DNA of 64,000 bases from Polyangia bacterium (lineage in GTDB: Bacteria; Myxococcota_A; Polyangia; Fen-1088). The DNA is taken from positions 1,588-65,587 of the forward strand of contig JBJMQQ010000013.1 in the NCBI GenBank assembly GCA_045802645.1. The letters run 5' to 3'. Both the position numbers and the translations under genes were made by a program. The notes beneath the pieces were generated by a model, which saw only the letters and a program-made list of their open reading frames with translations, was not told where the DNA came from and did not search any database. Shown here piece by piece: positions 3,001-62,186 of the stretch (position 1 is the stretch's first letter; every line of letters begins with the position of its first letter).

Positions 3001-3100
3001 CGGCGCCTGCAGCGAGTGCACGGCGAGCAACACCACCCTCTGCAACCCGCTGGAGCCGCAGTGTCTGCTGGACCTGGGCATCTGCGGCTGCGCCAGCGAC
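1..3100 (+). repeat. In-frame tandem DNA repeats (~222 bp unit, ~15 copies) inside the Cys-rich protein gene
   Basis: Codon strings recur (tgcacgtcgaacgcgcagtgcggcgg..., gcctgccgggcctgcgcgggcgac..., ggcgcgtgcggccagtgctcggc...). The multiple overlapping same-strand and antisense ORFs with periodic translations reflect the repeat. Confidence 0.8.
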
Positions 3101-4075
3101 CAGAGCTGCGGGGCCGTCGACTCGGGCCTGATCTGCAGTGGCCCAGGCGGGCTGTGTCAGCCCGGCTGCGCGGCGGCGCCGCGGAACGGCTGCCCGGCGG
3201 GCCAGAGCTGCGCGGCGTCCGGCGGCGCGGGCCAGTGCACGATGCCGGCGCCCTGCGCTTCGGACAACGACTGCAGCGCGCCGCTGACCCACTGCGAGAC
3301 GGCGACCGGCCACTGCGTCGGCTGCCTGGTCGACAACGACTGCCCGGCGCCGCTGGTTTGCGACGGGACCGCCCACACCTGCCTCGAGTGCACGCCGGCC
3401 GATCGACAGAACTGCGGCGCCGACCTCGCCGGGGCGCAGTGCCTGCCGGGCGGCCGCTGCGGTTGCACGCAGGACAGCGACTGCGGCGGCACCACCTCGG
3501 GCCGCGTCTGCGACCCCGTGTCGTCGCGCTGCGTCCCCGGGTGCCGCGGCACGGGTGGCAATGCTTGCCCGGCGGGCGAGCCGTGCTCGTCGACGACCTC
3601 CGACGTGGGCCGCTGCAATACTCAGCCGGCGACGGACGGAGGCGCGGGTGGGGCTGGCGGTAACACCGGCAACGGCGCGGCGGGCGGCGCGGGCGGCAAC
3701 ACCGGCCAAGGTGGCGCCGGCACTGACGCCTCGGCGCCCGACGGGGGCGGCGGGTTCGGTGGCATGGCCGGCGCTGGTCAAGGTGCAACGGGCGGTAGCG
3801 CGGGCGCGGGGTCGGGCACGGGCGGGCAGGGCGGCGGCGCGGGCACGCTGGCCGACGGTGGCGGGACGACGGGCGCGGGCGGCAGCCCCACGGACGGACC
3901 GGGCGCGCCGCAGGACGGCAGCGCCGACGGCATCGGCGCGGTGAACCCGGGTGGCTACATCGCCGGCGGCGGTTGCGACTGCTCGACCACCGGTGACTCG
4001 GCCCCATTGCGCCTCCTGGCCTGGGCCGTCGTCGGCGCCCTCGGCTGGGTCCGCCGCCGCCGCCCGCGCCGCTAG
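1..4075 (+). CDS. Cysteine-rich tandem-repeat secreted/surface protein with C-terminal MYXO-CTERM sorting signal (5' end lies outside window)
   Basis: The frame of ORF 101..4075 stays open back to nt 2, and ACEPWGACGQCS... precedes the first Met. It has ~15 tandem ~74-aa modules CVxCxSNAQCGGxTPxCNTxTHTC-RACxGDxECGGATPAC-QxSGACGQCSxTNxSxCTGxTPxC (Myxococcus cysteine-rich repeat type). A Gly-rich low-complexity stretch spans nt 3640-3960. The terminal GGGCDCSTTG-LLAWAVVGALGWV-RRRRPRR is a Cys motif + TM helix + Arg tail, i.e. MYXO-CTERM. Confidence 0.85.
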   Translation, partial: ACEPWGACGQCSSSNAAQCSGSTPVCNTGAGACVSCTSNAQCGGSTPICNTATHTCRACAGDNDCGGATPACQPGGACGQCSATNASACTGATPACFTTNGTCVPCTSNAQCGGTTPVCNTTAHSCRACGSDAECGGATPACESSGACGQCSASNATACAGATPVCNTATSTCVVCLTNAQCGGSTPVCNTVTHTCRACAGDGECGGATPACEPWGACGQCSATNGAQCSGATPVCNTGAGSCVSCTSNAQCGGATPVCNVSTHTCRACAGDNDCGGATPACQPSGACGVCSATNASKCTGSTPACLTTTGTCVPCTSNAQCGGIAPVCNTTTHTCRACTGDTECGGATPACQASGACGQCSLGNTSACAGPTPVCYTPSGTCVRCTADADCSGGSPVCDFAFHTCRACSGDNECGGATPACESSGACGQCSVNNSTQCTGATPLCETGAGKCVRCLANADCSGTTPVCDGGTHTCRGCGGDVDCGGATPACQASGACGICSATNTSKCTGTTPACDVPTGTCVNCMSNAECGGNRPVCNTATHTCRACVADTECGGATPACQASGACGQCSATNTSQCTGATPICLAATGSCVACLANADCGSATAPVCDGNLHSCRGCGGDTECGATTPACQPSGACGQCSASNAAACTGATPYCNTGSGSCVSCVNSSQCSGTTPICDGGTHVCRSCARDGDCGGATPACEPSGACGQCSATNVSACGGATPACDVSAGTCVGCTSNTQCGGATPVCNTATHACRACSGDGECGGATPACESSGACGQCSSTNATACTGTTALCETTSGTCVACLSDSDCGTAMAPICDGATHTCRGCGTDNECGGALPACQPSGACGVCSATNNTRCSASTPVCDVPNGTCVGCVSNAQCSGTSPVCDTASHSCRPCGGTADCPAAAPICLTAGSLAGACAACTATDTTHCTPKTPKCDTSAGPGVCVGCLTGSDCGGITPLCSSATHSCVACSADGAPSCPNPERPFCLTTGPLSGACSECTASNTTLCNPLEPQCLLDLGICGCASDQSCGAVDSGLICSGPGGLCQPGCAAAPRNGCPAGQSCAASGGAGQCTMPAPCASDNDCSAPLTHCETATGHCVGCLVDNDCPAPLVCDGTAHTCLECTPADRQNCGADLAGAQCLPGGRCGCTQDSDCGGTTSGRVCDPVSSRCVPGCRGTGGNACPAGEPCSSTTSDVGRCNTQPATDGGAGGAGGNTGNGAAGGAGGNTGQGGAGTDASAPDGGGGFGGMAGAGQGATGGSAGAGSGTGGQGGGAGTLADGGGTTGAGGSPTDGPGAPQDGSADGIGAVNPGGYIAGGGCDCSTTGDSAPLRLLAWAVVGALGWVRRRRPRR

Positions 4076-4080
4076 CTCGG

Positions 4081-5529
4081 CTACCTCAAGGCCAGCGTCG
4101 AGGCGCGCCACGCCGGCGAGCTCCAGCGCTTGAAGGCGAGCAGCTTGCCGGCGTTGTTGGCCCACTTGTCCACGGATAGCGTCGGCGCGTCCAGCACCTG
4201 GAACCGGCGGCTGGGGCGACCGTCGACGTGGGCTTCGCGGACGACCAGCAGCTTCCCGCCGTCGGGCGACATCCCGGCCGCCTCGACGTAGCCGGCGCCC
4301 GCGTCTGGGTCCGCCGCCGCCGGCGTCAGTGTGTCGATGGTCCAGGCGGCGCCCGCCGGCGCGCGGCGGATGACCCACAGCTCCGTCCAGGCCGGCAGCG
4401 GCTGCACGGCGATCGTTGCGACGTTCCCAGCGGCGGCCCAGCGCAGCGCGCTCGGCCAGACGACGCCGAACGTGCAGCGCTCGCCCAGGACCGCGTGCTT
4501 GCCGCCCCCGTCCACGACGCGGAGGCAGGTCTCGCCCGGTGCTCGCGACGCGACGGAAATGGCGACAGCCCGGGGCTGGCCTGGGCTCGGCGGGGCCTCG
4601 CCCGCCCAGCGGGAGGCGGCCACGCGAACGGCGACCTCGTCGTAAACCGCGCCGTCCTCCGGCGCCAGCACGCCCCGGTCCGCCAGCGCCAGCTCGCGCA
4701 CGGCGGTCCCTTCGGCGCGCGCGGCTGCGTCCAGCTGCCCCTGGCGCGCCTGGTCGAACGCCCGCCAGGCGTACGCCTCGGCGCGCCGCAGCCGCACGCG
4801 TCCCACCAGCGCCGGTGAGATCGATCTTTCGGCGATGAAGTCGATCGAGGTCAGCGCCTGCAGGCGACGGTCGTTGAACGCCCGCGTCAACGTGGGTGGC
4901 GCCGTCACATCGGCGCAGCGGTCGACGGACAGCGCCAGCGCGGCGCGCGCCCGCTCGATGGGTGCCGCGTTCGGCGTCGCCAGCACGCGTTCCCAGGCCT
5001 CGCCGTCGTAGCAGACGCGGGTGCGTCCGGTTGGCGTCTCCGGGTCAACGACGTTGAACTTCACCCCGTAGCTGGCCGCGACCTCCAGGTGGGCAGCCAG
5101 CATCGCGTCTTTCGCGTCGAGCCGCCGCGCGGACGCCCGGCGCGCCAGCCGGTCCGCCATGCTGCCAATCGCCGCCAGCAGCTCGCTCTGGTCGGCGCCA
5201 GGCGGCGCCGTTCGCAGCGCGAGCGCGGCGTAGCCGATCCCCAGCGACTCGTACCCGCCGGCATCGCGCAGGAATCGGACGACCGCCGTCAGCTCGGTCG
5301 TGGCGGTGGCGTCCAGCGGATACTCGCGCACCTGAGAGGGACGCACGTACCCGGGGCGCTCGTGCCGGTGGTCGTACACCCGCAGGAACCCCGCCGCTTC
5401 GCCGCGCACCTCCAGCCAGTCGCCGCGCGCCAGCGTTGCCTGCGCGGGGGCGTCGTCGCGGGGGGCATTACGCAGCACCGCCGGATCCTCGGCGACCAGC
5501 GCGACCAGCAACACGGCGGCCGCGCTCAT
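4081..5529 (-). CDS. Putative secreted protein with N-terminal SH3b-like domain, function unknown
   Basis: 482-aa ORF with a hydrophobic N-terminus (MSAAAVLLVALVA). GDWLEVRGEAAGFLRVYDHRHERPGYVRPSQV resembles the bacterial SH3 fold (GxWLxV...GYV). Its start shares 1 nt with the upstream SPFH stop (TAATG). Confidence 0.6.
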   Translation of the reverse strand: MSAAAVLLVALVAEDPAVLRNAPRDDAPAQATLARGDWLEVRGEAAGFLRVYDHRHERPGYVRPSQVREYPLDATATTELTAVVRFLRDAGGYESLGIGYAALALRTAPPGADQSELLAAIGSMADRLARRASARRLDAKDAMLAAHLEVAASYGVKFNVVDPETPTGRTRVCYDGEAWERVLATPNAAPIERARAALALSVDRCADVTAPPTLTRAFNDRRLQALTSIDFIAERSISPALVGRVRLRRAEAYAWRAFDQARQGQLDAAARAEGTAVRELALADRGVLAPEDGAVYDEVAVRVAASRWAGEAPPSPGQPRAVAISVASRAPGETCLRVVDGGGKHAVLGERCTFGVVWPSALRWAAAGNVATIAVQPLPAWTELWVIRRAPAGAAWTIDTLTPAAADPDAGAGYVEAAGMSPDGGKLLVVREAHVDGRPSRRFQVLDAPTLSVDKWANNAGKLLAFKRWSSPAWRASTLALR

Positions 5530-6809
5530 TACTCGGCCTCCGCGTTGTCGTTGGCGGCGCGGGTGGTGGCCGGCGCGTTGGTGTTCGCCGCGACGGGCCC
5601 ATGCGCCTGCATGCCCAGGAGTCCGCCCGCGAAGAAGCCGCCCGCCGAGGGCGGCGCGACGATGACCTGGATCTTGTCGGACAGCTTGTCGGCCAGCGTC
5701 TTCTGGATCAGCAGCGGGTTGCGGGCGATCAGCGCCGAGTCGCGCGCCATCTGGTCGGCGTTGGCCTTGCCGGTCGCCTCGATTCGGTAGGCGTCAGCAT
5801 CCGCCAGCTTCCTGCGCGCGTCGGCCTCGGCGGCGGTCTCGATCTTGCGAGCCTCGGCGTCGCCTTCCGCGTCCTTCATGCGCTGCACCTTGCGGGCCTC
5901 CGCCTCCAGGCGCCGCTGCTCGATCTCCTTCTCCTTCAGCGGGAGCACGTGCTTCATCGCCTCTTCACGGGCCTTGGCCGCGATGATCTCCTCGGACGCG
6001 GCGGCCTCGGCGGCCTTTTCGCGCTGGACCTTCGCGGCGTCCGCGTCCAGCTCGGACTCCTTCACGCGCTTCTCCTTGAGCTGCAGCGTGTAGCGCATCT
6101 TCTCGGTGGCCAGCTCCTCGGAAAGCATCCCTTCGAGCCCCTTGCGGTACTGCTCGGGCAGGTCGACGTGCCCCAGGTAGAGCGACCGCACCGTGATGCC
6201 GTCAGGCGCCAGCAGGCCACGCAGCTCGCCCTGGATGTCGTCCTGGATTTCGACGCGTTTGTCCGTGAAGATCTCCCGCACGGTGTGCCGCGCCAGTGCC
6301 CGGTGCAAGACCCCTTCCACGACCGGCTCGATCAGATCGTGCCCCACGTTGACCGGCAGGCGCTTGGCCACGTCGCCGACCCGGTTCGGATCGATGGCGT
6401 AGCGGACCGTCACCGCCACACCGACCGACAGCCCCTCGACCGTCTGGAACGGCGCGGGCCCGTCGGCGCTCGCGCTCTCCTGCGGGCGGTAGACCTGGTC
6501 GCGAAGCGGATAGCGCCGCAGCTCGTGCACCAGCGGCACGATCACGGTCGGTCCTTCGGGGATCACGCTCAGCCCTCCTGTGAGGCGGTTCAGGCGCACG
6601 CCGACCTCGCCGGCGGGCACCACCTGCACGGGCGGGCGCAAGCCGATCAGCAGCACGGCGCCCGCGATGAAGCCGGCCGCCAGGTAACGGCGGTGGCGCG
6701 GGCTGCCGAAGGTCTCGATGCAGCCCAGCGCCACGGCGGCGCCGGCGGCCCGCACGAAGACGTACGTCTGGATGGCCACTCGTTTGAAACGTTCGCGGAA
6801 GGTCGTCAT
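5529..6809 (-). CDS. SPFH/band-7 (stomatin/prohibitin/HflK-like) membrane protein
   Basis: N-terminal TM helix, then a band-7 core (VIPEGPTVIVPLVHELRRYPLRDQVY...VGVAVTVRYAIDPNRV...). Long Ala/Glu/Lys-rich coiled-coil C-terminus. RBS AGGAGAttccATG. Confidence 0.85.
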   Translation of the reverse strand: MTTFRERFKRVAIQTYVFVRAAGAAVALGCIETFGSPRHRRYLAAGFIAGAVLLIGLRPPVQVVPAGEVGVRLNRLTGGLSVIPEGPTVIVPLVHELRRYPLRDQVYRPQESASADGPAPFQTVEGLSVGVAVTVRYAIDPNRVGDVAKRLPVNVGHDLIEPVVEGVLHRALARHTVREIFTDKRVEIQDDIQGELRGLLAPDGITVRSLYLGHVDLPEQYRKGLEGMLSEELATEKMRYTLQLKEKRVKESELDADAAKVQREKAAEAAASEEIIAAKAREEAMKHVLPLKEKEIEQRRLEAEARKVQRMKDAEGDAEARKIETAAEADARRKLADADAYRIEATGKANADQMARDSALIARNPLLIQKTLADKLSDKIQVIVAPPSAGGFFAGGLLGMQAHGPVAANTNAPATTRAANDNAEAE

Positions 6810-6833
6810 GGAATCTCCTTTGGGTCTGCAGGT

Positions 6834-7283
6834 TCACGAAACGGTGAAGGTCACGCCCGCCAGCCGCCGACCGTCTGGCCCGAACACCTCGACGGTCGTT
6901 CGGCCCGGCGGCACGCGGTGGCGTGACCAGGTCCGCCAGCAGCGGTCATCGCCGACAGGCATGTAGTGGCGGGCGATCTCGACGCCGTCGCGGGTCCAGA
7001 CGTGCTCGATGAACCCGGCGCCGTGACCCGCGATCGTCGTGTGCGCGTAGACCTGCTCGCCGGCGGCGAACGGGCGCTCGGCGGTCGGCCCGTCGATCGG
7101 GTCGCGGTTCACGATCCGACGAGCCAGGGTGAGGGTGGCGAGAGGTGCTTGCGTCGGCTCGCCCGCGAACGCCCGCGCCGACATCAGAAACTCGAGTCCG
7201 GTCATGCTGGACCTGAATTGCAGCCGGCGTGCCGTCGCCCGGAGAGGCCGATCCACCGGGACTTCGAGGTCCCAGCGGCGCAA
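6834..7283 (-). CDS. Hypothetical protein (last gene of the SH3b/SPFH operon side)
   Basis: 149-aa ORF on the same strand 24 nt upstream of the SPFH gene. I recognise no family. The true start may be an internal Met. Confidence 0.4.
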   Translation of the reverse strand: MRRWDLEVPVDRPLRATARRLQFRSSMTGLEFLMSARAFAGEPTQAPLATLTLARRIVNRDPIDGPTAERPFAAGEQVYAHTTIAGHGAGFIEHVWTRDGVEIARHYMPVGDDRCWRTWSRHRVPPGRTTVEVFGPDGRRLAGVTFTVS

Positions 7284-7285
7284 TC

Positions 7286-7321
7286 TATGTTTTACATATC
7301 CTTTTCTGTAGAATGGCTGAG
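7286..7321. promoter_or_regulatory. AT-rich divergent promoter island (tttacatatccttttctgtagaatgg)
   Basis: This is the only strongly AT-rich stretch in a ~70% GC region, lying between divergent genes. It contains TTTACA and TAGAAT hexamers, and TAGAAT overlaps ATG 7313. Confidence 0.35.
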
Positions 7322-7651
7322 ATGAACGGCGACTCCTGGTTGGCTCGCGTGCGCCACGACCTGGTCAAGCGCCTCGTCTGGCCGGCGCGCGATCGGCGCG
7401 ACGCCGGCGGGCGCGTCATCCCCGGTGAGCTGGTGGCGTCCGTGATCGACGAGGAGGGGCAACCCACGACGGCCGGGGCGTTGTGGGCCACGCTGGCCGC
7501 CGACGCGCCGACCGGGGCGGGCGTGGCGGCGTTCGGCGCGGCCGTCGCGCGCGCCGTCGACGCCGCGCGAGCCGGCGACCTGGACGGCGTCTTGGCGCTG
7601 GAGGCCGCGTTCACGGCTTTGGCGCGATCCTTGGATGGAGAGACGAGCTGA
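7313..7651 (+). CDS. Small hypothetical protein, first gene of a 4-gene signalling operon
   Basis: ATG 7313 (alternative ATG 7322) inside ORF 7229..7651. Its stop overlaps the next start (TGATG). I recognise no domain. Confidence 0.5.
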   Translation: MAEMNGDSWLARVRHDLVKRLVWPARDRRDAGGRVIPGELVASVIDEEGQPTTAGALWATLAADAPTGAGVAAFGAAVARAVDAARAGDLDGVLALEAAFTALARSLDGETS

Positions 7652-9371
7652 TGCCCCGCGTGCTCGTCGTCGACGACCGAGATCAGACCATCGACATGGT
7701 GCACCGGCAGCTGCCGCACCTGGAGACGGTGACCCGCTGCGATCGCCGCATCCCCTGCCAGGTCTGCGAAGAGCGGACGCGCGGCTGCCCGCTGCGCTGC
7801 GCGCACGACTTCGCGGAAGCGGCCGCGGTGCTGGCCCGCGCGCCAACGCTGCCGGACCTGGTCGTACTGGATCTCCACTTCGCGCTTCCGGAAGAGCGCC
7901 TCTTGCCCGAGGACAAGTCCGACTTGCCGGCGGACCCCAAGGCCCGTCGCGCCGCGCTGGAGCGGCTGCGGCGCCGCCAGGGCCTACTGATCCTGGAGCG
8001 GCTGCGCGGGCTTTATCCGGCGCTGCCCGTCGTCATGCTGACGACGACGGGCTCGGACCTGGGCGCCGAGCGCCCGGACGATCCGCTGGTCTATCTGTGC
8101 GAGAACGAGGTTGTCGACAGCCGCAGCCTGGCCGCCGAGATCTCCCGCGCGCTGGCGCTGTCACACACGGCGCAGGAGGGGCCGGTCTTCTGGGGGCGCA
8201 CGCCGGCCATGACCGAGCTGCGGCGGCAGCTGGAGGCGCTGGCCCGTTCGCCGCTGCCGCTGCTGATCGAGGGGGAGACCGGAACCGGCAAGAGCTTCCT
8301 GGCCGAGCACGTGATCCATCCTCGCTCGGGCGTGAAGGGGCCGCTGGTTGTGACCGATCTGTCGACGGTGCCGCCCTCGCTGTTGGCGGCGCACCTGTTG
8401 GCGCGCGCCGGGGGGCTTACACCGGGGCGATCGAGGACCACGCGGGGGTGTTCGAGCAGGCGCATGGCGGCACCCTGTTCGTCGACGAGATCGGCAACCT
8501 GGATCTCGACCTGCAGCGGCAGCTCCTGCTCGTGCTCGAGCGGGGGCAGGTCACGCGCCTCGGCGACACACGGCCGCGCCCGGCGGCGCCGCGGCTGGTC
8601 GCGGCGACCAACTCCGACCTGGACGCGGCGGTCCGCAGCGGCCGGTTTCGCCCCGATCTCTTCATGCGGCTCAACCCCGCCACGCGGCTGCGGCTGCCGC
8701 CGCTGCGGGAGCGGCGCGCCGATCTGCCCGAGCTGGTGCGCTTCGCGTTTCTCGAGGCGCTGCGGTCGGAGGCGCTGCAGCCGCTGGTGCGCGCCTACCT
8801 GGCCCGGTTTCCGACGCCGGACCCCTTCGACGATGCGCGGAACGAAGTCGTGTTCGGGCGGCCGCGGGCGGCGGTCGCGCGGCGCGACGCGTTCACCGTG
8901 TTCATCAGCCGCGAGGCGCTGGCGCGCCTGACGGACAGCGACTGGCCGGGAAATCAGCGGGAGCTGAAGCTGCTGGCGGCCAACGCGGTCGTGTTCGGGC
9001 TGACCCAGCATCTCGACGGCGAGGGTGTCGCCGAAGCCGCGCGTGCTCCAGCCGTGCTGGACGTCCCCGACCCGCTGATCGCGCGCCTGCTCGGCGGCGA
9101 CGTGCGCCGCAGCCCCAAGCCGCGAGCCACCGGCGCGGGGCGAGCCGGCGGCCGGCGGATCGAGGTGGAGGTCGCGGCGCACGGAAGCTTCGCGCGCGTC
9201 TCGGCGGACGTCGAGCGCCAGTACCTGCGCGCGCTTTACGAAGCCTGCGCGGGCGACCTGGCGCGGATGGCGCGCGAGCTGCTGGGTCCCGCCGGGACCG
9301 CTCGCCAGGTCCACCTGCGCATGAACCAGCTGGGGCTGCGCGTTCGCGACCTGCGGGGGGCGACGCCGTGA
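7651..9371 (+). CDS. Sigma-54-dependent transcriptional activator (NtrC-like EBP) with an atypical Cys-cluster receiver-like N-domain; apparent frameshift in G6 run at 8410-8415
   Basis: N-terminus VLVVDDRDQ...LVVLDLHF is receiver-like and carries CDRRIPCQVCEERTRGCPLRC. The AAA+ sigma-54 interaction domain (LLIEGETGTGKSFLAEH ... GAYTGA ... GGTLFVDEIG) is split between ORF 7483..8931 (frame 1) and ORF 7635..9371 (frame 2). Adding one G to the 6-G run restores ...LLARAGGAYTGAIEDH... A C-terminal Fis-type HTH is present (RQYLRALYEACAGDLARMARELL). Confidence 0.85.
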
Positions 9372-12280
9372 TCGCGGCGCTGGCGTTACTGGCGGGGCTC
9401 GCGATCGCGGACGGTGGCGTCGCCCCCGACGCGGCGGCAGTCGTCACGGCGCCGCCAGCGTCGCCGGCCAGCGTGTCGCCGCCGTCCGAGCTCGCCGCTC
9501 GCGTGCGCGCGAAGAGCGAGCACGCGCAGGGCCTGGCGGCGCTGCGGGCGGGCCGCGCCGAGGACGCCGCGCAGCTGTTCGGGCAGGCGGCGGGACACGA
9601 CCGCGGCAACGCGACGTACCTCACCGATTGGGGGTTTGCGCTCGCGAAGGTCGGCAAGCGTGCCGAGGCCGAGGCGGCCCTGCGCGACGCGATCGACAAG
9701 GAGCCGCGGCGATTCTACGCGTACGTGAACCTGGCCGATTTGCTGGCCAGCGATCCCGCGCGCTGGGAGCGGCGCGACGCGATCGTGACATTTCTCGACA
9801 AGGGGCTGGACGCGCTGAAGGAGGACCGCAAGGGGCGCTTCAACCTGGCCCTGGCGCTGGCGGGGTTCGAGCGCGCCGTCGGGCGGACCGCCGAGGCGCG
9901 GTCGCGGCTGGCGCCGTTGCTGGACGCGGCCGCGCCGCCGCTGACGCGGCTGCAGCGCAAGCGGGTGCTGGACCTGCTGGATGCGGTGGCCCTCGACGAT
10001 CGGGCGCGCTCCCTCGAGGACTGGCCGGCGCCGGCGCCCGACGTCGCGCGACGGCTGGCGCACGACGCGCGGGCCGCGGAAGAGAGCGGGCGCGTCGACG
10101 ATGCCATCCGCGACCTGGAGATCGCCGTCAACCTGGCGCCGTCGGACGGCGAATCCTGGCGGGCGCTGGGGCGCTTGCTGGCGGCGAACGGCGGCGCGCT
10201 GGAGCTCGATCGCGCCGACGACGCGCTCCGCAACGCGCTGGCGCTGGAGCCGGGCTGGGCGGATCTGCGAGAGCTGCGGGCGCAGATCGCGCGGCGCAAA
10301 CACGCGGCTGCCGCGACGACCGCGCCTTCTCGGGCGCCCGCCCCGTCGGAGAAGGCCCGCGCGCTGGTGCAGGAGGCGGAGGACTGGATCGACGTCGGCG
10401 ACCCGATCGGCCTCGGGCGCGAGATGCTGGAGCAGGCGCTGGCCGATTCGCCCGCGTTCGTTTCGGCGGCGCTGTCGCTTTACGCGCTGACGGGGACCGT
10501 GCCGGAGGCCACCGTGTCGGCGTTGCAGGACGACGGGCCGGGGCTGTGGGCCCTGGCGGCGGGTGTGCGCAAGCTGGGCGCAGGTGGCGCGCGCGGCGCT
10601 GGACGCGAGCCGGACGGCACGGTGGCGGTTGAACGGCTGGTGCGCCCCTGGATCGATCGCGCCGTCGAGCTGAATGTGCAGGACGCCCGGTTCGCGCGCG
10701 CGACGGCTCGCGCGGCCGCGGGCGATCGGGACGGGGCGCTGGCCGATCTGGTCGCCTACCTGGCGCGCGAGCCGGCACCGGAGCACCTGGCGGAAGCGCG
10801 CGCGTTGCGGGCCGGGCTGCTGGACGACGCGGGCAGCGGTGCGCGCCAGAGCCGGCTGCCGCCCCAGCTGGTCGCGCGCATTCGCCTGGTCGAGGACCGA
10901 CCGGACGCTGCGTTGCGCGCCCTGGGCGGTGCCTGCGCGGCCGGCCTTCCCGTCGAGCGGCTGCTGGCGATCGGCGTCGTTCACGAGTTCGCGGATCGCC
11001 GGGGCGCGGCCCGTGCCTGTTACGAGCTGGCCGCGCTGGGCGGTGAGGGGGCGGCGCTGATCCGGCTGGCGCGGCTGGACGCACGGCTGCCAGACGCCGA
11101 GCTGCGGGCCGCGGACCGGGCGCTGGTGGATCGGGCGGCCGCGCAGGGGGTGGGCGCCGCGCTGTGGGCGCGCGCCCGCCTGGAGCTGGCGGACGGCAAC
11201 CAGGAGGCGGCGCTGGCCGATGCGCGCGCGTCGCTCACCCGGGCGCAGGGCTCTGCCGATTCAATCGATCCCTGGATGCCAGCCGCCGCCGCGATCGAGC
11301 ACCAGCTGGCCGACAGGCGCCGCGCCAGTCAGGAGGCCCGCCGCGTGCGCCGCCAGCGACTGGCCGGTGGGATGGGCGTCGCGGTCGTGGCGGCGATGCT
11401 GGCGATGTTTCGCCGGCGCTGGCGGGGCAAGACGCTGCCGGCGGCGTTGCGCCGGCACCCCGAGCTGTTCCCGGAGCTGGCGCGGGCCGTCGCCGAGTTG
11501 CGCCACGACGTCCTCAAGCACCGCGCGGGTGTGCTGGGCGCGGTCGCGGACGAGGCCGCGCGCGACGAGGTCCGCCGCGCGATGACCGAGCCGCGGCCGA
11601 CGTCGCAGGTGGTGGCGGATCTTTACGGCAAGGTCGCGCAAGCGGGGCGGGGGGCGGGCGTCGCGCTGAAGCCAATCGAGCGTGAGCCGACGTTCGGTCC
11701 GCTGGTCGCCGACCTGGCCAAGGCCGAGCATCTGCTGGCGCGTGCGGCGACCGCGGGCACTGCGGAGTTGCTGGCCATCGACGCGCGGCTGCGCGGCGAG
11801 CACGCCGATCGCCTCAACGCTCTCCTGGAGCTGGGGCCGCGCACCCGGCTGGACGCGGCGGTGCTGTCGTCCTGGATCGGCGGCGTCGAGGCGGCGGTGC
11901 GGCGGGCGGGGCTGGCCTGGACGGCGCCCGGGCTCTCGCTGGCCGATCTGCAGGTCGACTTCCCCGTCGCCGAGCCGGCGCTGGCGGCGATCTTCGCCAA
12001 CTTGCTGCGCAACGCGCAGGCGGCCGTCGCAGGCCAGACCGACCCGCGGGTCGTCGTGAAGCTGGATCGCGCCCGCGACGTCACCGGACGCCCGCTGGTC
12101 AGCCTGTCCGTGGGTGACTCGGCGGCGGCCACGCTGACCCTGGAAGCGATCGAAGGGCGCGAGAGCGGACGCGGGCTGGCGATCGTGCGCGACGCCGTCC
12201 GGCACTGGCGCGGCCACCTGGTGGTGCGACCGGAGGCGCCCCCGGTCGCGAAGGCGATCGGGGCCGTGTTTCCGACATGA
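9368..12280 (+). CDS. Sensor histidine kinase-like protein with large periplasmic TPR-repeat domain, one TM helix and C-terminal HATPase_c domain
   Basis: GTG start overlaps the EBP stop (GTGA). Signal peptide MIAALALLAGLAIA. ~650 aa of TPR-like Ala/Leu/Arg-rich repeats. TM helix GMGVAVVAAMLAMF. Possible H-box ELRHDVLKH. C-terminal HATPase_c (IFANLLRNAQAAV ... GRGLAIVRDAV). Confidence 0.75.
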   Translation: MIAALALLAGLAIADGGVAPDAAAVVTAPPASPASVSPPSELAARVRAKSEHAQGLAALRAGRAEDAAQLFGQAAGHDRGNATYLTDWGFALAKVGKRAEAEAALRDAIDKEPRRFYAYVNLADLLASDPARWERRDAIVTFLDKGLDALKEDRKGRFNLALALAGFERAVGRTAEARSRLAPLLDAAAPPLTRLQRKRVLDLLDAVALDDRARSLEDWPAPAPDVARRLAHDARAAEESGRVDDAIRDLEIAVNLAPSDGESWRALGRLLAANGGALELDRADDALRNALALEPGWADLRELRAQIARRKHAAAATTAPSRAPAPSEKARALVQEAEDWIDVGDPIGLGREMLEQALADSPAFVSAALSLYALTGTVPEATVSALQDDGPGLWALAAGVRKLGAGGARGAGREPDGTVAVERLVRPWIDRAVELNVQDARFARATARAAAGDRDGALADLVAYLAREPAPEHLAEARALRAGLLDDAGSGARQSRLPPQLVARIRLVEDRPDAALRALGGACAAGLPVERLLAIGVVHEFADRRGAARACYELAALGGEGAALIRLARLDARLPDAELRAADRALVDRAAAQGVGAALWARARLELADGNQEAALADARASLTRAQGSADSIDPWMPAAAAIEHQLADRRRASQEARRVRRQRLAGGMGVAVVAAMLAMFRRRWRGKTLPAALRRHPELFPELARAVAELRHDVLKHRAGVLGAVADEAARDEVRRAMTEPRPTSQVVADLYGKVAQAGRGAGVALKPIEREPTFGPLVADLAKAEHLLARAATAGTAELLAIDARLRGEHADRLNALLELGPRTRLDAAVLSSWIGGVEAAVRRAGLAWTAPGLSLADLQVDFPVAEPALAAIFANLLRNAQAAVAGQTDPRVVVKLDRARDVTGRPLVSLSVGDSAAATLTLEAIEGRESGRGLAIVRDAVRHWRGHLVVRPEAPPVAKAIGAVFPT

Positions 12281-12723
12281 CGGCTGCTGGCGTCGCGCGC
12301 CGGGTGTTCGTCGTGTGCGAGGACGGCACCGAGTACATCGATCGATTTCGCCGGTTCCTGGGCCAGTCGTTCGACTTCGTGGCTGCGCCCGATTTCGCGG
12401 CCGCGCGCGGTCTGGTCGCTGAAACCGACGGCCTGCTGCTGGACCTGGATTTCCGCCGGACGCCGCCCGAAAGGTTGGTCGACGAGCAAGGCCAGTCCGC
12501 CGCCGGGGTCGACGCGGGCACGCGCGCACGATTGGCGGAGACTCAGGGCATCCTGATCCTCCGCCGTCTGCGCGCCGAGGGGATCGTCACGCCAGCCGTT
12601 CTCTTCGCCGACCTCGACGACGACGCGCAGGCGGAGTTCCTGCGCCGAACGCTGGCCCCCCTGACGCTGGCGCCGAGCCGCCTGGGCCTGCGCGAGCTGG
12701 CCGCTCTGTTGCGGGGCTACTGA
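12277..12723 (+). CDS. Stand-alone atypical receiver-like domain protein, paralogous to the N-domain of the adjacent sigma-54 activator
   Basis: ATGA overlap with the upstream gene. VFVVCEDGTEY...LLLDLDFRRTPPERL...QGILILRRLRAEG aligns with the EBP N-domain VLVVDDRDQT...LVVLDLHFALPEERL...QGLLILERLRGLY, including the same insertion after the putative phospho-Asp. Confidence 0.65.
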   Translation: MTAAGVARRVFVVCEDGTEYIDRFRRFLGQSFDFVAAPDFAAARGLVAETDGLLLDLDFRRTPPERLVDEQGQSAAGVDAGTRARLAETQGILILRRLRAEGIVTPAVLFADLDDDAQAEFLRRTLAPLTLAPSRLGLRELAALLRGY

Positions 12724-13724
12724 CAGCCGATCTGGTTGTCGTCGATCGCGAGGTCGTCGATCCACATCGTGAACGGGCCCGTGAGCGTGTCCGTTTGATA
12801 GTACGTGGCGCCGAGGATGAGGTCGGTGTAGCTGGCCGGCATCTCGGCGTTCGAGCGATTCGCGAACGCGATCTCGGTGACCTCTTTCGAATCCGAGAAG
12901 AACCGATAGCTCTTCGTCGTGAGGTCGACGTACCACTCGGCGCAGTGCCACGCGTCGTCGAACGTCCAGTTGTAGGGGGAGCTGGTGCAGCAGGCGTCGT
13001 CCGGCGTGTTGAACAGCCACTGATGCGTGTGGGCGCCCTGGGTCTCGACGGTGTCGACGACGCGATCCTCGGTGGACCCGCCCATCAGGCTGAGGAAGGT
13101 GGTGTGCAGGACGTGCGTGTTGTCGACGGCCGACGGGCTCTGCACCTTGTAGAACATGCGCCCCCAGGGTTTGTTGGCGGTCGCGCCCAGGCTGCTCAGC
13201 GCCTTCTGCACGCGGCCGGTCCCTTGCGACGCCGCGATGCTCTTCAGCGCCTTCGAGCCGGAGTGGGCCGCGTCCGTCGCGACCGCCTGGTCGGTGGCGT
13301 TGGTCTTGCCGTTGTATCCCTTGAACACTGTCCAGCCGGTGGGGATCGCGCCTGCCGTGCTCGACTCGAAGTCCTCGCACAGCTTGTACGTCTTGCCCGC
13401 GCAGCCGCCGGCGACAGCGCCCCCGGCGCCACCCGTGCCGGGAGCTCCCGCGGCGCCACCCCCGGCGCCTCCCGTGCCCGGAGCGCCCGCCGTTCCGCCC
13501 GTGCCGCCCGTCGACACGACCGAGCCGCCCGTCCCCGGCGAGCCGCCCGCGCTGGTACCGCCCGTGGCCGCGCCGCCGGTTGCGTTCGTGGTGCCGCCGG
13601 TGCCCGGACTTCCGCCCGCGCCCGTCGTGTTCGGCGCCGAGGAGGAGCAGGCCCCGGTCAGGGCCAGCAGCGCCGCCAGCGCCAGGCGCGGCGAGACGAT
13701 GTTGAGTCGCGTCGGGTGTTGCAT
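12717..13724 (-). CDS. Secreted lipoprotein with Gly/Thr-rich linker and C-terminal jelly-roll-like (lectin / polysaccharide-lyase-like) domain
   Basis: Lipobox LALTGAC. Long GGT/GGS linker. The ~230-aa Cys-containing C-domain (KLCEDFESSTAGAIPTGWTV...WIDDLAIDD) is not a confident family match. RBS AAAGAGG. Confidence 0.7.
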   Translation of the reverse strand: MQHPTRLNIVSPRLALAALLALTGACSSSAPNTTGAGGSPGTGGTTNATGGAATGGTSAGGSPGTGGSVVSTGGTGGTAGAPGTGGAGGGAAGAPGTGGAGGAVAGGCAGKTYKLCEDFESSTAGAIPTGWTVFKGYNGKTNATDQAVATDAAHSGSKALKSIAASQGTGRVQKALSSLGATANKPWGRMFYKVQSPSAVDNTHVLHTTFLSLMGGSTEDRVVDTVETQGAHTHQWLFNTPDDACCTSSPYNWTFDDAWHCAEWYVDLTTKSYRFFSDSKEVTEIAFANRSNAEMPASYTDLILGATYYQTDTLTGPFTMWIDDLAIDDNQIGCQ

Positions 13725-13758
13725 GGTCGATCAGCCTCTTTCTATTAGATGATGCTCA

Positions 13759-14892
13759 TCAAAGGTGCACGCCCGGCACTGGCGCCGGCGTTGCGTGGTC
13801 CGCCTCGGTGCCGTCTCCAAGTTGCCCCGAATCGTTGGAACCCCAGCACAGCACCGCGCCGTCGCGGGTCGCCGCGCACGCATGAAAGCCGCCGCCCGCC
13901 AGCGCGGTGACGCCGCTCAGGCCGGCGACGGGCGCAGGCGTTGCGCGGCTGGCGGTCGTGCCGTCGCCGAGCTGTCCGGACGCGTTCCATCCCCAGCATC
14001 GCGCGGTGCGGTCCTGCAGCACGGCGCAGCTGTGGTTGTAGCCGGTCGCGATCGCGACCGCCGCCGGCATCCCCGCCACAGCGACCGGCGTTGCGCGATC
14101 GGTCGTCGTGCCGTCGCCCAGCTGACCGTAGGCGTTGGCACCCCAGCACCAGACCGTGCCGCCCGCGTCCAGCGCGCAGAGGTGGTCGAAGCCCGACCCG
14201 ACGGCGACGATCGCTGACAGCCCGAGCACGGGCTCGGGGAAGGCGTGGGCGGTCGTCGTGCCGTCCCCCAGCTCGCCGTTGTCGTTGCCGCCCCAGCACT
14301 GGACGGTCCCGTCGCGCAGCAGCGCGCAGGTGTGCCGGCCGCCCGCCGCCAGCGCCGCGGCCGGCGGCAGCGAGAACACCGCTACCGGTGACCCACTGTT
14401 CAGGGAGGAGCCGTCGCCCAGCTGCCCGGCGTCGTTCTGCCCCCAGCAGCGCGCGACGCCGTCCGCGTCCAGCGCGCAACTGTGATAGCTGCCGGCGGCG
14501 ACGCTGGTGGTGAGCGGCAGTCCGGGGACCGCGAACGCGCTCAGCCGGTTGGTGTTCGAGTGATCGCCGATCTGCCCGCCCACGTTCCACCCCCAGCAGA
14601 AGACCGCGCCGTCCACGTCCAGCGCGCAGCTGTGGTAGCTGCCGTCCGCCAGCTCCCGCGCGTGCGCCGGGCCGGGGACGCGCCCGGGCACGGGTGAGTC
14701 GATCTCGGTGCCGTCGCCCAGCTGGCCGTCGACGTTCGAGCCCCAGCACCACACGTCGCCCGCCATGTCGACGGAGCAGGTGTGGCCGGCGCCGGCGCCC
14801 AGCGGGCGCGCCGTGACGGCGACGGCCGGCGCAGCGCCGGTGCCCCCGCAACCGATCGCCGACGAGATCACCAAGACGATCGCCAATCGCAC
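13759..14892 (-). CDS. RCC1-repeat (alpha-tubulin suppressor/ATS1-like) beta-propeller protein, secreted
   Basis: Seven repeats of the form HxCALxxDGxVxCWGxNxxGQLGDG. Signal peptide MRLAIVLVISSAIGC. Confidence 0.85.
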   Translation of the reverse strand: MRLAIVLVISSAIGCGGTGAAPAVAVTARPLGAGAGHTCSVDMAGDVWCWGSNVDGQLGDGTEIDSPVPGRVPGPAHARELADGSYHSCALDVDGAVFCWGWNVGGQIGDHSNTNRLSAFAVPGLPLTTSVAAGSYHSCALDADGVARCWGQNDAGQLGDGSSLNSGSPVAVFSLPPAAALAAGGRHTCALLRDGTVQCWGGNDNGELGDGTTTAHAFPEPVLGLSAIVAVGSGFDHLCALDAGGTVWCWGANAYGQLGDGTTTDRATPVAVAGMPAAVAIATGYNHSCAVLQDRTARCWGWNASGQLGDGTTASRATPAPVAGLSGVTALAGGGFHACAATRDGAVLCWGSNDSGQLGDGTEADHATPAPVPGVHL

Positions 14893-14895
14893 GCG

Positions 14896-16275
14896 TCAGG
14901 TCGTGAGCGCGCTGTCGATGTCGCCGCTGTACTTGGGGTCGCCCACGCCCGTCACGCTGGTCATTCCCATTGCGTGCAGCACGGACGTCAGCAGCTTGTT
15001 GTTCGGCACCTGGCTGGGGAAGGTCACCGTGCGCCCCGTCTTGAAGAACCCCCCGCCGCTGCCGACGATCATGTAGGGGATGCGGCCGACGTAGTGCTCG
15101 GACCCCTCGCTCATGTCGCTGAACACCAGGATGACGGTGTTGTCGAGCACGGTGCCGCTGCCCTCGGGCGCGGCGGCCAGCTTGGCGCACAGCTCGGCCA
15201 CGCACTGCTGGTAGAACCACTGATCGATCTGGGCCTTCTGCGTGTAGTTCGCCTTCCCCAGGTGCGCGATGGCGTGCATGTCGGGGCTGGGGATGCTGAT
15301 CCACGGGAACGTCAGGCTGTTCCCGCCGCCGTTGTCGATCAGATCGATCGTCACGGCCCGCGCTTTCCCGCAAATGACGGCCGCCGCGGCGAGGTCGCTG
15401 ATGAACGTGACGTGGGTCGGGTAGTTCGTGACCGTGCTGAAGTTGAGGCCGGTTGGCGTGACCGTCGGCGCCGTGCAGGTGGTGCCGTTCGACGACATGG
15501 TCGTCAGCTGGTTCTCCAGCGACTGGATCGCCTGGAGGTGGCTCTGCACCTTCACCTTGTCGTCGGTGCCCAGGTTGCCCGCGAACTTGTTCAGCTGGCC
15601 GCCCACGAAGTCCAGCACGCTCTTGCGGCGCGCCATCAGCGCGTTCATCTGCATCGCCGTCATGCTGCTGCCGGCGAAGAGGTTGTTGAACAGCTTGTAG
15701 GGATCGGTCTGAGGCGTGGTCTTGACGCCGTTCGCCGCCCAGCTGGTCGAGCTGCCGTACGGGCGGCAGCCGACGTTCAGCAGCGCGTTGTTCACGCCCG
15801 CGTTCTGCGCCAGCCAGGTCGCGTACAGCTGATCGATCGACGGCTGCGTCGCGGTGATGGTGGGCACCGAATCGGATCCGTTCGGCGACGTCACCGCGCC
15901 AGTCAACAGCGCCGGGTACGTGAAGTGGCCGCCGTACTTGGCGCCGACGTCCATGACGACGTTGCAATCGATCGGGCTGCCCTGGCTGTTGGCCTGCCGC
16001 AAGAGCAGCAGCTTCGAGCTCCAGGCGGAAAGCGGCTGCAGCGTCGAGGGCAACGGGTCTGGCAGGGCGCCGCCCGCGCTGGTGTAGAAGTTCGGCGGGC
16101 AGATCCCGTCCGTCACGGCGACGGTGATCAGCCGCTTGGGGAAGCCCGTCGCCGCCGTCGCCCCGCGCGCCCGCTCGGTCGACAGCAGCGGCAGGAATCC
16201 GGCGCCCAGACCCAGCGCCTTCAGCGTGGCGCGCCGCGAGAACTTGAGCTGGGTCTTGCTGGTGCGGATCGTCAT
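14896..16275 (-). CDS. DUF1552-family protein with Tat signal peptide
   Basis: Twin-arginine motif FSRRATLKALGLGAG. Similar to the DUF1552 family that pairs with DUF1592/DUF1585/DUF1588 proteins. Start ATG 16275 overlaps the upstream stop (ATGA). Confidence 0.8.
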   Translation of the reverse strand: MTIRTSKTQLKFSRRATLKALGLGAGFLPLLSTERARGATAATGFPKRLITVAVTDGICPPNFYTSAGGALPDPLPSTLQPLSAWSSKLLLLRQANSQGSPIDCNVVMDVGAKYGGHFTYPALLTGAVTSPNGSDSVPTITATQPSIDQLYATWLAQNAGVNNALLNVGCRPYGSSTSWAANGVKTTPQTDPYKLFNNLFAGSSMTAMQMNALMARRKSVLDFVGGQLNKFAGNLGTDDKVKVQSHLQAIQSLENQLTTMSSNGTTCTAPTVTPTGLNFSTVTNYPTHVTFISDLAAAAVICGKARAVTIDLIDNGGGNSLTFPWISIPSPDMHAIAHLGKANYTQKAQIDQWFYQQCVAELCAKLAAAPEGSGTVLDNTVILVFSDMSEGSEHYVGRIPYMIVGSGGGFFKTGRTVTFPSQVPNNKLLTSVLHAMGMTSVTGVGDPKYSGDIDSALTT

Positions 16276-17948
16276 GGCAGCACCTCCCCGGCGGCCGGCG
16301 CCCGGTAGCGGAAGGTTCGCGACGTCGCCACCGCGGCGATGAGATCGCGGATGTTGCCGGTGGATTGAAAAGCCTTCGCGGCGCCCTGCACCGACGCCAG
16401 GTCCGCGCTGGTGTCCCAGCGGTTGAGCGCGTAGCGCGTCCACTGGCGCGCGAAGCAGCTCTGAACGTCCGGGCTGCTGGCCAGCATCGTGGTCAGCGCG
16501 ACCGCGTTCGGGAACGTCTGCATCTCACCGTTGAGCGGGATCTGGCCGTTGGCGTCGACCGGCAGGCTCTGGTCCGTCGTGCGGTACTGGCCGATGCCGT
16601 CGTAGTTCTCGAACCCGTAGCCGATGGGGTCCATCGCGTTGTGACAGCTCCCCGTGCAGCTGTTCTGATCGTGCTGCAGGAACCGGTCGCGCGTCGTGAG
16701 CCCGGGGGTGGGTGGTTGCGGCGGCGGCACGTTGTTGGGCGGATTGGGCAGCACGTTGCACAGAAGCCGCGTGTAGATGGCGTGCCCGCGCCGAACCGGC
16801 GACGATCCGTCGCTGGCGCCGGTCACCGTGAGGAACCCGGCCAACGTCAGCAACCCCGAGCGCTGCGTTCCGTCCAGGGTCACCGGCTTGGGCGTCGTCC
16901 CCGTGACGCCCGTGACCTTGTACACCGCCGCAAGGGCCTGGTTCGCGGACGTCGACGTGCCGGTGAGGAGATCGGTGAACGAGCCGCTGCCCGTCAGCAC
17001 GGAGCTCCCGAACGCGCGGAACTCGTTCTCCATGGCGCTGGCCAGGTCCTGGTTCCACATCGGGTAGAGGGTCGCGTCCTTGGGTCGCGACGGCAGCACA
17101 TTGACGTCCAGCCAGTCGTCGAAGAAGTCCGCCGCCATGTCGGCCGCCTTCGGATCCGCCAGCATGCGCTGGATCTGTGTCTGCAGACCGTCTGTGGTGG
17201 TCAGCTCTCCGGCCGCGGCCGCCGCGAACAGCGCCTGATCCGGCATCGTCCCCCACACGAAGTACGACAGCCGGTTGGCGATCTGGTAGTTGCCCAGCTG
17301 CACGACGTTGCCGTCCTTCACCGCGTGGCCGGGATCCATCTCCCAGTGGTAGACGAACTGCGGCGACTGCAGCATCGTCTCGATCAGCAGGTCGATCGCG
17401 CCGTTGAAATCCAGCCCCAGCGTCGTGCGCCCGGTCTGGTACATCGCCGTCAGGTCGGTGACCTCGGTCGGGCTCAGCGGGCGGCGGAAGACCTTGGCGC
17501 CGAACGTCGTGATGAATTGATTCGCGCAGCCGGCCTCCGCGCCGCTGTTGGCGGGCGTGCAGGGGAGCACCGACGACAGCTTCGTGGCGAGGTGGGTAGC
17601 CAGCGTCTCGGCGGCGGACTGCAGGTTGCCGGCCTCGAAGTTCCCGATCGCGCCCGGCTGCCGGAACGGAAAGGCGTTGTTGCTGAGGTCGTCGGATTCG
17701 CTGGGGACGTCGCCGCTGTCCAGGGTCGTGTCGGCCAGCAAATCGCGCGCGGTGTTCAGGTATTCGCGCGCCGTCAGGCGTCGCAGCGGCAACACCCCCG
17801 CGGCCTTCGGGTCGCCGGGCGCGCTGCCGGTACCGCCGGTCGCGCCCGCGCCGCCACCGCTGGCGTCGATCTCTCCGCGGCAACCCCCCAACAGGAGGGC
17901 AGCGATCAGGGCACCGGGGCGTATGAATCGTGTCCAGTGATCGATCAC
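16272..17948 (-). CDS. DUF1592/DUF1585/DUF1588-family lipoprotein (partner of DUF1552)
   Basis: Lipobox LLGGC. DUF1585-type motif SCTGSCHNAMDPIGYGFENYDGIGQYR. GTG start with GGGAGG RBS. Confidence 0.8.
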   Translation of the reverse strand: MIDHWTRFIRPGALIAALLLGGCRGEIDASGGGAGATGGTGSAPGDPKAAGVLPLRRLTAREYLNTARDLLADTTLDSGDVPSESDDLSNNAFPFRQPGAIGNFEAGNLQSAAETLATHLATKLSSVLPCTPANSGAEAGCANQFITTFGAKVFRRPLSPTEVTDLTAMYQTGRTTLGLDFNGAIDLLIETMLQSPQFVYHWEMDPGHAVKDGNVVQLGNYQIANRLSYFVWGTMPDQALFAAAAAGELTTTDGLQTQIQRMLADPKAADMAADFFDDWLDVNVLPSRPKDATLYPMWNQDLASAMENEFRAFGSSVLTGSGSFTDLLTGTSTSANQALAAVYKVTGVTGTTPKPVTLDGTQRSGLLTLAGFLTVTGASDGSSPVRRGHAIYTRLLCNVLPNPPNNVPPPQPPTPGLTTRDRFLQHDQNSCTGSCHNAMDPIGYGFENYDGIGQYRTTDQSLPVDANGQIPLNGEMQTFPNAVALTTMLASSPDVQSCFARQWTRYALNRWDTSADLASVQGAAKAFQSTGNIRDLIAAVATSRTFRYRAPAAGEVLP

Positions 17949-32176: not shown

Positions 32177-32689
32177 ATGAAATGGTCTGGTATCGTCATC
32201 CCGATGCGCGCCTTCACGACCGCGGCCTGCCTGCTCTTCTCGGTCGCCGTTGGGTGCGGGTCGAGCTTACCGTCGGGCGCTGGCGGAATCGGGGGGATGG
32301 CGACCGGCGGGTCGTTCGGGACCGGCGGGGCCTCGGGCGGCACCGGGGGCGCGGACGCGGGTGCGCTGGCGGCGGTGTGCCGGTCCTTCGCACAGGCCTA
32401 CGCCGCGGCGCTGCCGGCGGCGGAGCGGTGTTCGGTCGGCGCGAGCGACCCCTGTGCCACCCTCGTTCCACAAGCCGTGTCGGGCGACGTCTGCGTGACG
32501 GGCTGCCAAGTCTACGTCAGCGACGCGACTGCGCTGAACGCGATCATGCAGGGCATGGAGCAGGCCGGTTGCTCCACCTTGACGGCGTGCTTTCTGGCGA
32601 TTGCCTGCGCGACCCCCGCGGCGGGCTTTTGCATGCCGGGTGACGGCGGCGACGGCCGTTGCCAGAACCTCTACAACGTCGCGCGCTAA
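32177..32689 (+). CDS. Small Cys-rich lipoprotein, hypothetical
   Basis: Lipobox SVAVGCGS, Gly-rich linker, 10 Cys in the mature part. Confidence 0.5.
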   Translation: MKWSGIVIPMRAFTTAACLLFSVAVGCGSSLPSGAGGIGGMATGGSFGTGGASGGTGGADAGALAAVCRSFAQAYAAALPAAERCSVGASDPCATLVPQAVSGDVCVTGCQVYVSDATALNAIMQGMEQAGCSTLTACFLAIACATPAAGFCMPGDGGDGRCQNLYNVAR

Positions 32690-62170: not shown

Positions 62171-62186
62171 TGGCGCGGCGGTTGCA
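62171..62186 (+). promoter_or_regulatory. Sigma-54 promoter-like element TGGCGCGGCGGTTGCA upstream of sigma-54 activator gene
   Basis: -24 TGGCGC, -12 TTGCA, exact spacing. Followed by AGGAG 62201-05 and GTG 62217. Confidence 0.5.

Follow-up and report, generated by a model that had tools for sequence, protein, structure and literature searches.

Phosphorelays such as KinA-Spo0F-Spo0B-Spo0A and CckA-ChpT-CtrA are built from a kinase histidine, a single-domain receiver, a small DHp-related histidine protein and a terminal response regulator, and the PEP-CTERM system PrsK/PrsR/PrsT combines a sigma-54 activator, or enhancer-binding protein (EBP), with a histidine kinase and a TPR protein. ZraR drives the divergent sigma-54 promoters of zraP and zraSR in envelope stress (PMC4987338). 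In Myxococcus xanthus, RedCDEF is described as a "four-component" operon whose products are two receiver proteins together with a kinase and a kinase-like partner (PMC2755868). Here, we describe a four-gene cassette in a 64,000-nucleotide stretch of DNA from a Polyangia bacterium (GenBank assembly GCA_045802645.1, contig JBJMQQ010000013.1, positions 1,588 to 65,587 of the forward strand; G+C ~73%), hereafter the window. We call its genes, in order, p1, EBP, p3 and p4, EBP being the sigma-54 activator. The cassette is real and, as a signalling operon, widely conserved among uncultured soil myxobacteria (Polyangia); it is assembled from components of known superfamilies with the logic of a sigma-54 two-component or phosphorelay system, and as a system it is uncharacterised. 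On balance, and with modest confidence, we read it as a lineage-restricted, sigma-54-dependent module of the two-component type in which p3 would be the sensor, p1 and p4 paralogues of its reacting parts, and a divergent SPFH operon the output of the EBP, with a flow of phosphoryl groups that we infer. The cassette genes, and the cysteine cluster within the activator, are as follows.

7313..7651, + strand: p1, 112 aa if started at ATG 7313, though 109 aa with a start at ATG 7322 is more likely; invariant RHDLVKR motif
7651..9371, + strand: EBP, 573 aa when repaired, frameshifted in the window, with a Sigma54_activat domain
7738..7806, + strand: Cys cluster in EBP, an insert in the alpha1-beta2 region of the receiver-like domain
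9368..12280, + strand: p3, 970 aa, sensor histidine-kinase type with a TPR-like extracytoplasmic region
12277..12723, + strand: p4, 148 aa, stand-alone receiver-like protein

An earlier note on this window had proposed four co-directional + strand open reading frames (ORFs) over 7313-12723, and these are borne out (7313 or 7322-7651, 7651-9371, 9368-12280 and 12277-12723). Adjacent genes overlap as it had stated, at TGATG 7649-7653, GTGA 9368-9371 and ATGA 12277-12280, which makes three junctions rather than the four that it had counted. Its view of a co-transcribed signalling operon holds in that synteny is kept; stoichiometric co-expression was its extrapolation from the stop/start overlaps, and the p1/EBP overlap is not kept in all orthologues.

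Each of the described systems shares something with this arrangement. Like the NtrB/NtrC class, the cassette has an EBP composed of a receiver-like domain, a Sigma54_activat AAA+ domain and a putative Fis-type helix-turn-helix (HTH), with a protein of the DHp-CA kinase type encoded adjacently; it differs in a receiver that lacks the Lys and carries both a 30-aa beta3-alpha3 insert and a four-cysteine (Cys4) insert, and in a kinase whose H-box reads RHDVLKHR and whose DHp helices are separated by additional ones. ZraPSR, and more loosely PspF/PspA, of Enterobacteria resembles it in having divergent regulator and effector operons with the sigma-54 promoter of the effector in the shared intergenic region, in an effector at the envelope or membrane, and in that ZraS is among the structural matches of p3. 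In contrast to those systems, the effector here is a DUF2914-SPFH-482aa operon and not ZraP or PspA, the sensor domain is a TPR-like region of 645 aa, p1 and p4 are additional paralogous proteins, and the regulator operon has no detected sigma-54 promoter. The Spo0 and CckA-ChpT-CtrA phosphorelays also consist of four separate modules of matching kinds, whereas the modules here form one operon, the receivers lack the Lys, p1 has no degenerate CA domain, and phosphotransfer is a prediction. RedCDEF is, by its description, likewise a four-gene two-component operon in Myxococcota; it differs in that RedD is a dual receiver and RedE a full kinase-like protein, and it has no sigma-54 activator, TPR sensor or small H-box protein. 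PrsK/PrsR/PrsT offers the same combination of sigma-54 EBP, histidine kinase and TPR, which in the cassette differs by fusion of the TPR region to the kinase. Membership in that PEP-CTERM system was rejected: the EBP scores 147.2 bits against a TIGR02915 cut-off of 502.6, and the loci have no conserved exopolysaccharide/exosortase neighbourhood.

The case for a functional unit begins with conservation. Scanning a single genome for each species yielded 44 cassette loci, all in uncultured Polyangia or Myxococcota metagenome-assembled genomes (MAGs), and by tblastn the order p1-EBP-p3-p4 is present in every locus with enough flank, so that the gene order, for which the earlier note had proposed a synteny search, is conserved in related Polyangia/Myxococcota loci. 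Identity across the loci spans 64-94% for the EBP and 38-85% for p3, and the shared arrangement is far beyond chance. Two distant cassettes, L049 and L053, whose p4 proteins are ~30% identical to ours, keep the same four-gene order (the genes of L049 encode 125, 533, 874 and 157 aa), and a further distant locus, L052, is an error-ridden copy. The genes downstream of the cassette differ between two of the other loci, L001 and L002. The p4 of the window is 100% identical to a hypothetical protein from a "Polyangia bacterium" MAG, and a hidden Markov model search of 1.84 billion representatives returned 136 p4-family proteins at E<=1e-3, mostly of 145-165 aa, which marks the family as narrow. Source annotations of the homologues read only "hypothetical", "ATP-binding protein" or "sigma-54 interacting regulator"; the JGI label "class 3 adenylate cyclase" on one p4 homologue was rejected, since no domain match supports it. 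A homologue search with a profile of the EBP N-terminus gave no new architectures and returned mostly gene fragments.

p3 has the layout of a membrane-bound sensor kinase. The large periplasmic TPR region that had been proposed for it is there, as ~645 aa between hydrophobic segments at residues 1-17 and 667-681, the latter being the transmembrane segment encoded at 11366-11410. The Pfam TPR matches in this region are weak and multiple, and distant p3 orthologues give firmer ones. The cytoplasmic part carries an H-box, RHDVLKHR, at 11501-11524 (His713), an N-box, NLLRNA, at 11999-12016, a G1-like VGDSA at 12110-12124 and a G2 box, GRGLAIV, at 12167-12187. Alignments of 24 and 32 sequences, which bear directly on whether the protein has an H-box and ATP-binding residues at all, show R-H-D-x-x-K-H-R to be invariant, together with N-L-L-R-N-A of the N-box, the Asp of G1 and R-G-L of G2; in the distant cassette, the H-box reads RHEVLKHN. 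The region is confidently modelled as a histidine-kinase DHp-CA core, with three extra helices between the His helix and the helix leading into the CA domain. Pfam HisKA models do not recognise the H-box, the HATPase_c match is weak (E 0.041), no F-box was found in p3, and no PDB sequence was a significant match in profile searches with p1, p4 or the cytoplasmic region of p3.

The product of the first gene, which the earlier note had left as an anonymous small protein, shares the RHDxxK motif of the kinase H-box. Its N-terminal motif, W-LAR-V-RHDLVKR-LVWPARDRR, is essentially invariant, with His15 encoded within nt 7352-7372 and the pair His15-Asp16 invariant throughout; the motifs of the distant cassettes, RHDVGKY and RHDLGKY, mirror the p3 H-box in the same way. 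p1 has no match in Pfam, NCBIfam or PDB sequences. Aligned by hhalign against the His module of p3, its profile scores 27.25 (E 5.6e-4), compared with 14 for the reversed profile and a mean of 12.3 (sd 2.6, maximum 21.5) in 150 column shuffles, a score ~5.7 sd above the control, and two motifs are paired in the alignment, RHD and a further one (LALEPAF and REPxFGPL). From these profiles, p1 and the helical module of p3 that bears the His are probably paralogues. In the L001 orthologue, the alignment begins at 7322, and alignment of the upstream region agrees with a start there, which suggests that the true start of p1 is ATG 7322, ~9 nt after a conserved TAGAAT. With so short a distance to that element, the transcript may be leaderless.

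A second pairing joins p4 to the activator. Residues 1-175 of the EBP form an extremely conserved receiver-like domain in which D8, D9, D74 and T131-133 are invariant, a conserved insert of ~30 aa (beta3-alpha3) follows the Asp74 strand, and the beta5 position, YLCENEVVDSR, has no Lys; the Pfam Response_reg model does not recognise it (E 0.077). No family in Pfam or NCBIfam matches p4, yet AlphaFold2 models it as a (beta-alpha)5 fold (pLDDT 87.4) whose beta3-alpha3 insert of ~30 aa holds an additional helix, and in a Foldseek search of the PDB all top matches were response-regulator receivers at a TM-score of ~0.6 (PhoP 3r0j, E 6e-6). The two domains align with each other at an hhalign probability of 95.4% (E 1.9e-8) with the insert covered, and pairwise BLASTP gives E 0.001. 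On this profile and fold evidence, p4 is a stand-alone paralogue of the EBP receiver domain, as the earlier note had proposed in calling it a copy of the activator's atypical N-terminal fold. Its residues E15, D16, G17, E19, D56, F59, R61, Q90, G91 and D112 are invariant down to 29% identity, and its Thr and Lys positions are Ala111 and Ala132. A receiver that lacks at least one of DD, D, T and K is termed a pseudo-receiver (PMC12632262); both the EBP domain and p4 fall under this definition because each misses T and/or K.

The cysteine cluster pointed out in the activator is also present, as C30-x5-C36-x2-C39-x6-C46-x3-C50-x-H52 (nt 7738-7806). C30, C36, C39, C46 and H52 are invariant and C50 is nearly so. 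The cluster occurs in 27/27 Polyangia-type EBPs and in 0/3 distant cassette EBPs, which makes it a lineage-specific addition. A metal, as Zn or Fe-S, is probably bound by the Cys4 insert, through which the activator may receive a further signal of redox or metal type. These features suit a partner switch that would operate independently of phosphorylation, in which the pseudo-receivers would be run by protein binding and by the Cys4 metal/redox site and p3 would be an ATP-binding scaffold or pseudokinase. The Lys is gone from both domains and the Thr from p4, the G1 box of p3 is degenerate, the Cys4 insert is constant within the Polyangia type, and OrpR offers the precedent of an Fe-S-sensing EBP (PMC8359166). 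However, the acidic pair, the acceptor Asp, the His-Asp of the H-box and the Asn of the N-box stay invariant across deep divergence, a pattern difficult to account for unless phospho-chemistry is at work, the Cys4 insert is missing from the distant cassettes, and substitutions of T or K need not abolish phosphorylation (PMC12632262). We give such a switch little credence.

The remainder of the activator is that of a sigma-54 EBP, with one lesion. The ORF is not intact in the window: with its 1721 nt, the span 7651-9371 is not divisible by 3, and its first 250 codons share a frame (7651 to ~8400) that differs from the one in which the remaining AAA+ domain is read from 8403 on. DNA alignment with five orthologues places the loss between 8399 and 8400, where the C of a TTC (Phe) codon is missing and the orthologues read HLFGARRGAYTGA (longer stretch, ...AAHLFGARRGAYTGA...). 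Once the frame is repaired, a full sigma-54 AAA+ module is recovered, in line with the activator that the earlier note had seen (Sigma54_activat PF00158, E 4.1e-49), with Walker A at 8272-8295, GAYTGA at 8412-8429 and Walker B at 8475-8492. GETGTGKS (Walker A) and LF[LV]DEI (Walker B) are present in 30/30 EBP orthologues, and the sigma-54 contact loop is GAYTGA in 26/30 and GAFTGA, GSFTGS, GAYTGS or GSYTGA in the others. In work on PspF, Tyr is reportedly tolerated at the Phe position of GAFTGA. A putative, divergent Fis-type HTH begins at ~9210, with weak HTH_8 matches (E 0.0025-0.074) in 4/4 tested orthologues, and the EBP reaches no NCBIfam equivalog cut-off (ntrC, 201 vs 558.6).

A programmed -1 frameshift was rejected as the explanation of the lesion: the shift is not conserved, every orthologue keeping its frame at this codon. 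The 1-nt deletion is either a sequencing/assembly (consensus) error or a recent inactivation. If it is real, the locus would be a decaying pseudogene and the system non-functional in this genome; the deleted base does not lie in a homopolymer run, and every orthologue is in frame, both of which speak for a true mutation. Yet of the 11 genes that are syntenic with L001, the closest long contig, over 16 kb, the EBP alone has a broken frame, and the other three cassette genes are intact and encode proteins 82-96% identical to those of L001. Consensus errors are also common in MAGs: scattered frameshifts in EBP, p3 or p4 occur at L017, L030, L043, L002 and L015, which lie on long-read MFD MAG contigs, a pattern typical of such errors. 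We consider decay of the locus rather unlikely.

The output of the cassette is indicated by the DNA on its other side, where a promoter and a divergent operon face away from p1.

7277..7312, + strand: AT-rich element ATCTAT-N-TTTTACATAT-N-TTCTGTAGAAT, conserved across loci, directly before p1
7219..7234, - strand: sigma-54 (-24/-12) promoter CGGCAC-GCCGG-CTGCA, with correct GG-N10-GC spacing, facing the DUF2914-SPFH-482aa genes
6834..7205, - strand: DUF2914 protein, 123 aa (Pfam E 5.8e-7), first gene after the promoter, present in a subset of loci
5529..6809, - strand: SPFH/Band_7 membrane protein, 426 aa (Pfam Band_7 E 1.6e-18; weak HflK), transmembrane segment near residue 42
4081..5529, - strand: 482-aa protein, last gene of the operon, with a hydrophobic N-terminus and weak SH3_16/SH3_3 matches

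A gap of 107 bp separates p1 from the divergent gene and holds the promoter, which is ~80 nt upstream of p1; the exact string GGCAC-N5-CTGCA occurs once in the window. At the same place, GGCA[C/T]-N6-TGCA is found in 26/27 loci, with fixed -24 and -12 blocks, 12 or more distinct spacers and surrounding intergenic DNA that is otherwise unalignable. The SPFH-482aa operon adjoins the cassette, downstream of this promoter, in nearly all loci; where DUF2914 is absent, an AAAGGAG Shine-Dalgarno sequence and the SPFH ATG come directly after the promoter, and in L046 the SPFH pair is relocated downstream of p4. The SPFH/Band_7 protein is thus probably the main target gene. It is most likely that the EBP acts on the 7219-7234 promoter and that the cassette switches on the divergent SPFH operon, adjacency being the ground for assigning the promoter to this EBP. 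The AT-rich block, 55-90 bp upstream of the sigma-54 promoter, may be a -10-like promoter or operator of the cassette, an enhancer (upstream activating sequence) of the divergent promoter, or both. No sigma-70 consensus or terminator was found in 7100-7400, no inverted repeat of at least 8 nt in 7190-7340 and no Rfam family in 4000-13800. TGGAC-N-TTGCA on the + strand at 7208-7222 was rejected as a sigma-54 promoter of the cassette itself, its GG-GC spacing being 9 and not 10. A palindrome, GGGAC-TTCGAG-GTCCC, lies at 7246-7261 between the promoter and the AT-rich block and is not conserved in other loci.

Sigma-54-like sequences elsewhere in the window are a separate matter. The earlier note had counted four such sites, but these are at chance level: TGGCAC-N5-TTGCW with <=2 mismatches occurs 26 times against 23.6 expected, so a window-wide enrichment was rejected. 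One-mismatch matches, which are also at chance frequency, lie at 32444-32459 (-) and 46082-46097 (+) and read TGGCACAGGGGTCGCT and TGGCACGGTCGTCGCT. A near-consensus TGGCGC-GGCGG-TTGCA at 62171-62186 (+) could be a sigma-54 promoter: after ~30 nt come an AAGGAG Shine-Dalgarno sequence and the start of a second NtrC-type response regulator/EBP gene (GTG 62218, ESKGRILIVDDE...), which is 33% identical to the cassette EBP by tblastn and may be autoregulated.

From these parts, a working scheme can be drawn. p3 would sense an extracytoplasmic cue through its TPR-like domain and autophosphorylate on His713, and the phosphoryl group would end on Asp74 of the EBP, releasing its AAA+ activity. It might travel from p3 to Asp56 of p4, to His15 of p1 and on to the EBP, or pass from p3 to the EBP directly. 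The EBP would then turn on the sigma-54 promoter, and transcription of the DUF2914-SPFH/Band_7-482aa genes would produce an envelope or membrane response. For the route of the signal, we tentatively favour the His-Asp-His-Asp relay, because p4 and, probably, p1 duplicate the two reacting modules and keep the reactive Asp and His over deep divergence; this is a possibility and well short of an expectation. The whole picture of a self-contained relay that arose by duplication of both reacting modules, with a hitherto undescribed class of Lys-less receivers that bear a conserved 30-aa insert near the active site, an activator additionally gated by a Cys4 metal or redox centre, and sigma-54 control of SPFH (flotillin/HflK-like) membrane-scaffold genes, we regard as unlikely in all its parts together.

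The same conserved residues and the same paralogy would equally suit a branched two-component system. There, p3 would phosphorylate the EBP directly, p4 would serve as a competing phosphate sink or phosphatase-assisted drain, and p1 would be a DHp-like decoy that binds the receivers or heterodimerises with p3, so tuning its kinase or phosphatase output. One locus, L051, keeps EBP-p3-p4 with no space for p1, so p1 is dispensable in some cassettes, and DHp interactions of the RetS-GacS type have representatives among the structural neighbours. A sink and a relay intermediate look alike at the level of sequence, however, and the invariance of the His-Asp pair of p1 goes beyond what a helix surface would call for and argues for chemistry at the His. 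We rate a branched system almost as high as the relay.

Several observations weigh against the sigma-54-dependent two-component-type module itself. On the kinase side, the G1 glycines of p3 are replaced (VGDSA) and its ATP lid is short, so that kinase activity is not assured, and the pseudokinase RetS is among its best structural matches. The homology of p1 to p3 is only moderately supported, at an hhalign probability of 9-30%, and the cassette of L051 lacks p1. Among the receivers, both domains are without Lys and p4 is also without Thr/Ser, one p4 (P0066) carries Asn in place of Asp56, and many pseudo-receivers are not regulated by Asp phosphorylation (PMC12632262). For the activator and its target, the EBP gene of the window is out of frame, all HTH_8 matches fall below the gathering score of 22 bits, no enhancer site for the EBP was identified, and no convincing sigma-54 promoter was found near the distant cassette L049. 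These points call for caution about the route of the signal; that the locus is a sigma-54 module of the two-component type, and that the divergent SPFH operon is its output, is well supported.

Some features of individual loci and of the flanking DNA complete the description. Directly after the p1-less cassette of L051, positions 8535-10913 encode a 792-aa hybrid PAS-HATPase-receiver kinase, a hint that a hybrid kinase may substitute for p1 there. In L036, an insert of ~2.3 kb (~480-2800) splits p3 from p4, the sole case without direct p3-p4 coupling; it holds a minus-strand gene for a 572-aa secreted Cys-rich protein and a + strand ORF of 240 aa. In the window, a convergent 335-aa gene at 12717-13724 (-) overlaps the 3' end of p4 by 7 nt (12717-12723), which leaves no space for an intrinsic terminator; its product is Gly/Thr/Ala-rich with a lipoprotein-like N-terminus, and conservation of the gene is limited to the closest relatives (L001, L003, L006, L008 and L010). 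For the large ORFs at 101-4075 (+, 1324 aa) and 13745-15967 (-, 740 aa), Pfam gave no match at E<=0.01; given the high-GC DNA, they may be spurious or overlapping-frame. The HXXSHH and PSD/PSCyt genes of L001 map to 14899-16275 and 16278-17909 of the window on the minus strand.

The cassette provides a testable circuit for a Polyangia group known only from metagenomes, running from a sensor through one or more accessory proteins to a sigma-54 activator, one promoter and an SPFH operon. Two of its members, p1 and p4, represent families without relatives in Pfam, NCBIfam or PDB that sequence can detect, and the combination is unusual: receivers that lack the Lys and share a conserved insert, a Cys4 insert within the receiver of the activator, paired stand-alone paralogues (probable, for p1) of both reacting modules and an SPFH target operon. 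It is a natural test case for whether pseudo-receivers that keep the acidic pocket and lack the Lys are still phosphorylated, and another for the origin of multi-step relays through duplication of a cognate pair. If the proposed output is true, the cassette would tie sigma-54 control to membrane organisation of the SPFH or flotillin type.

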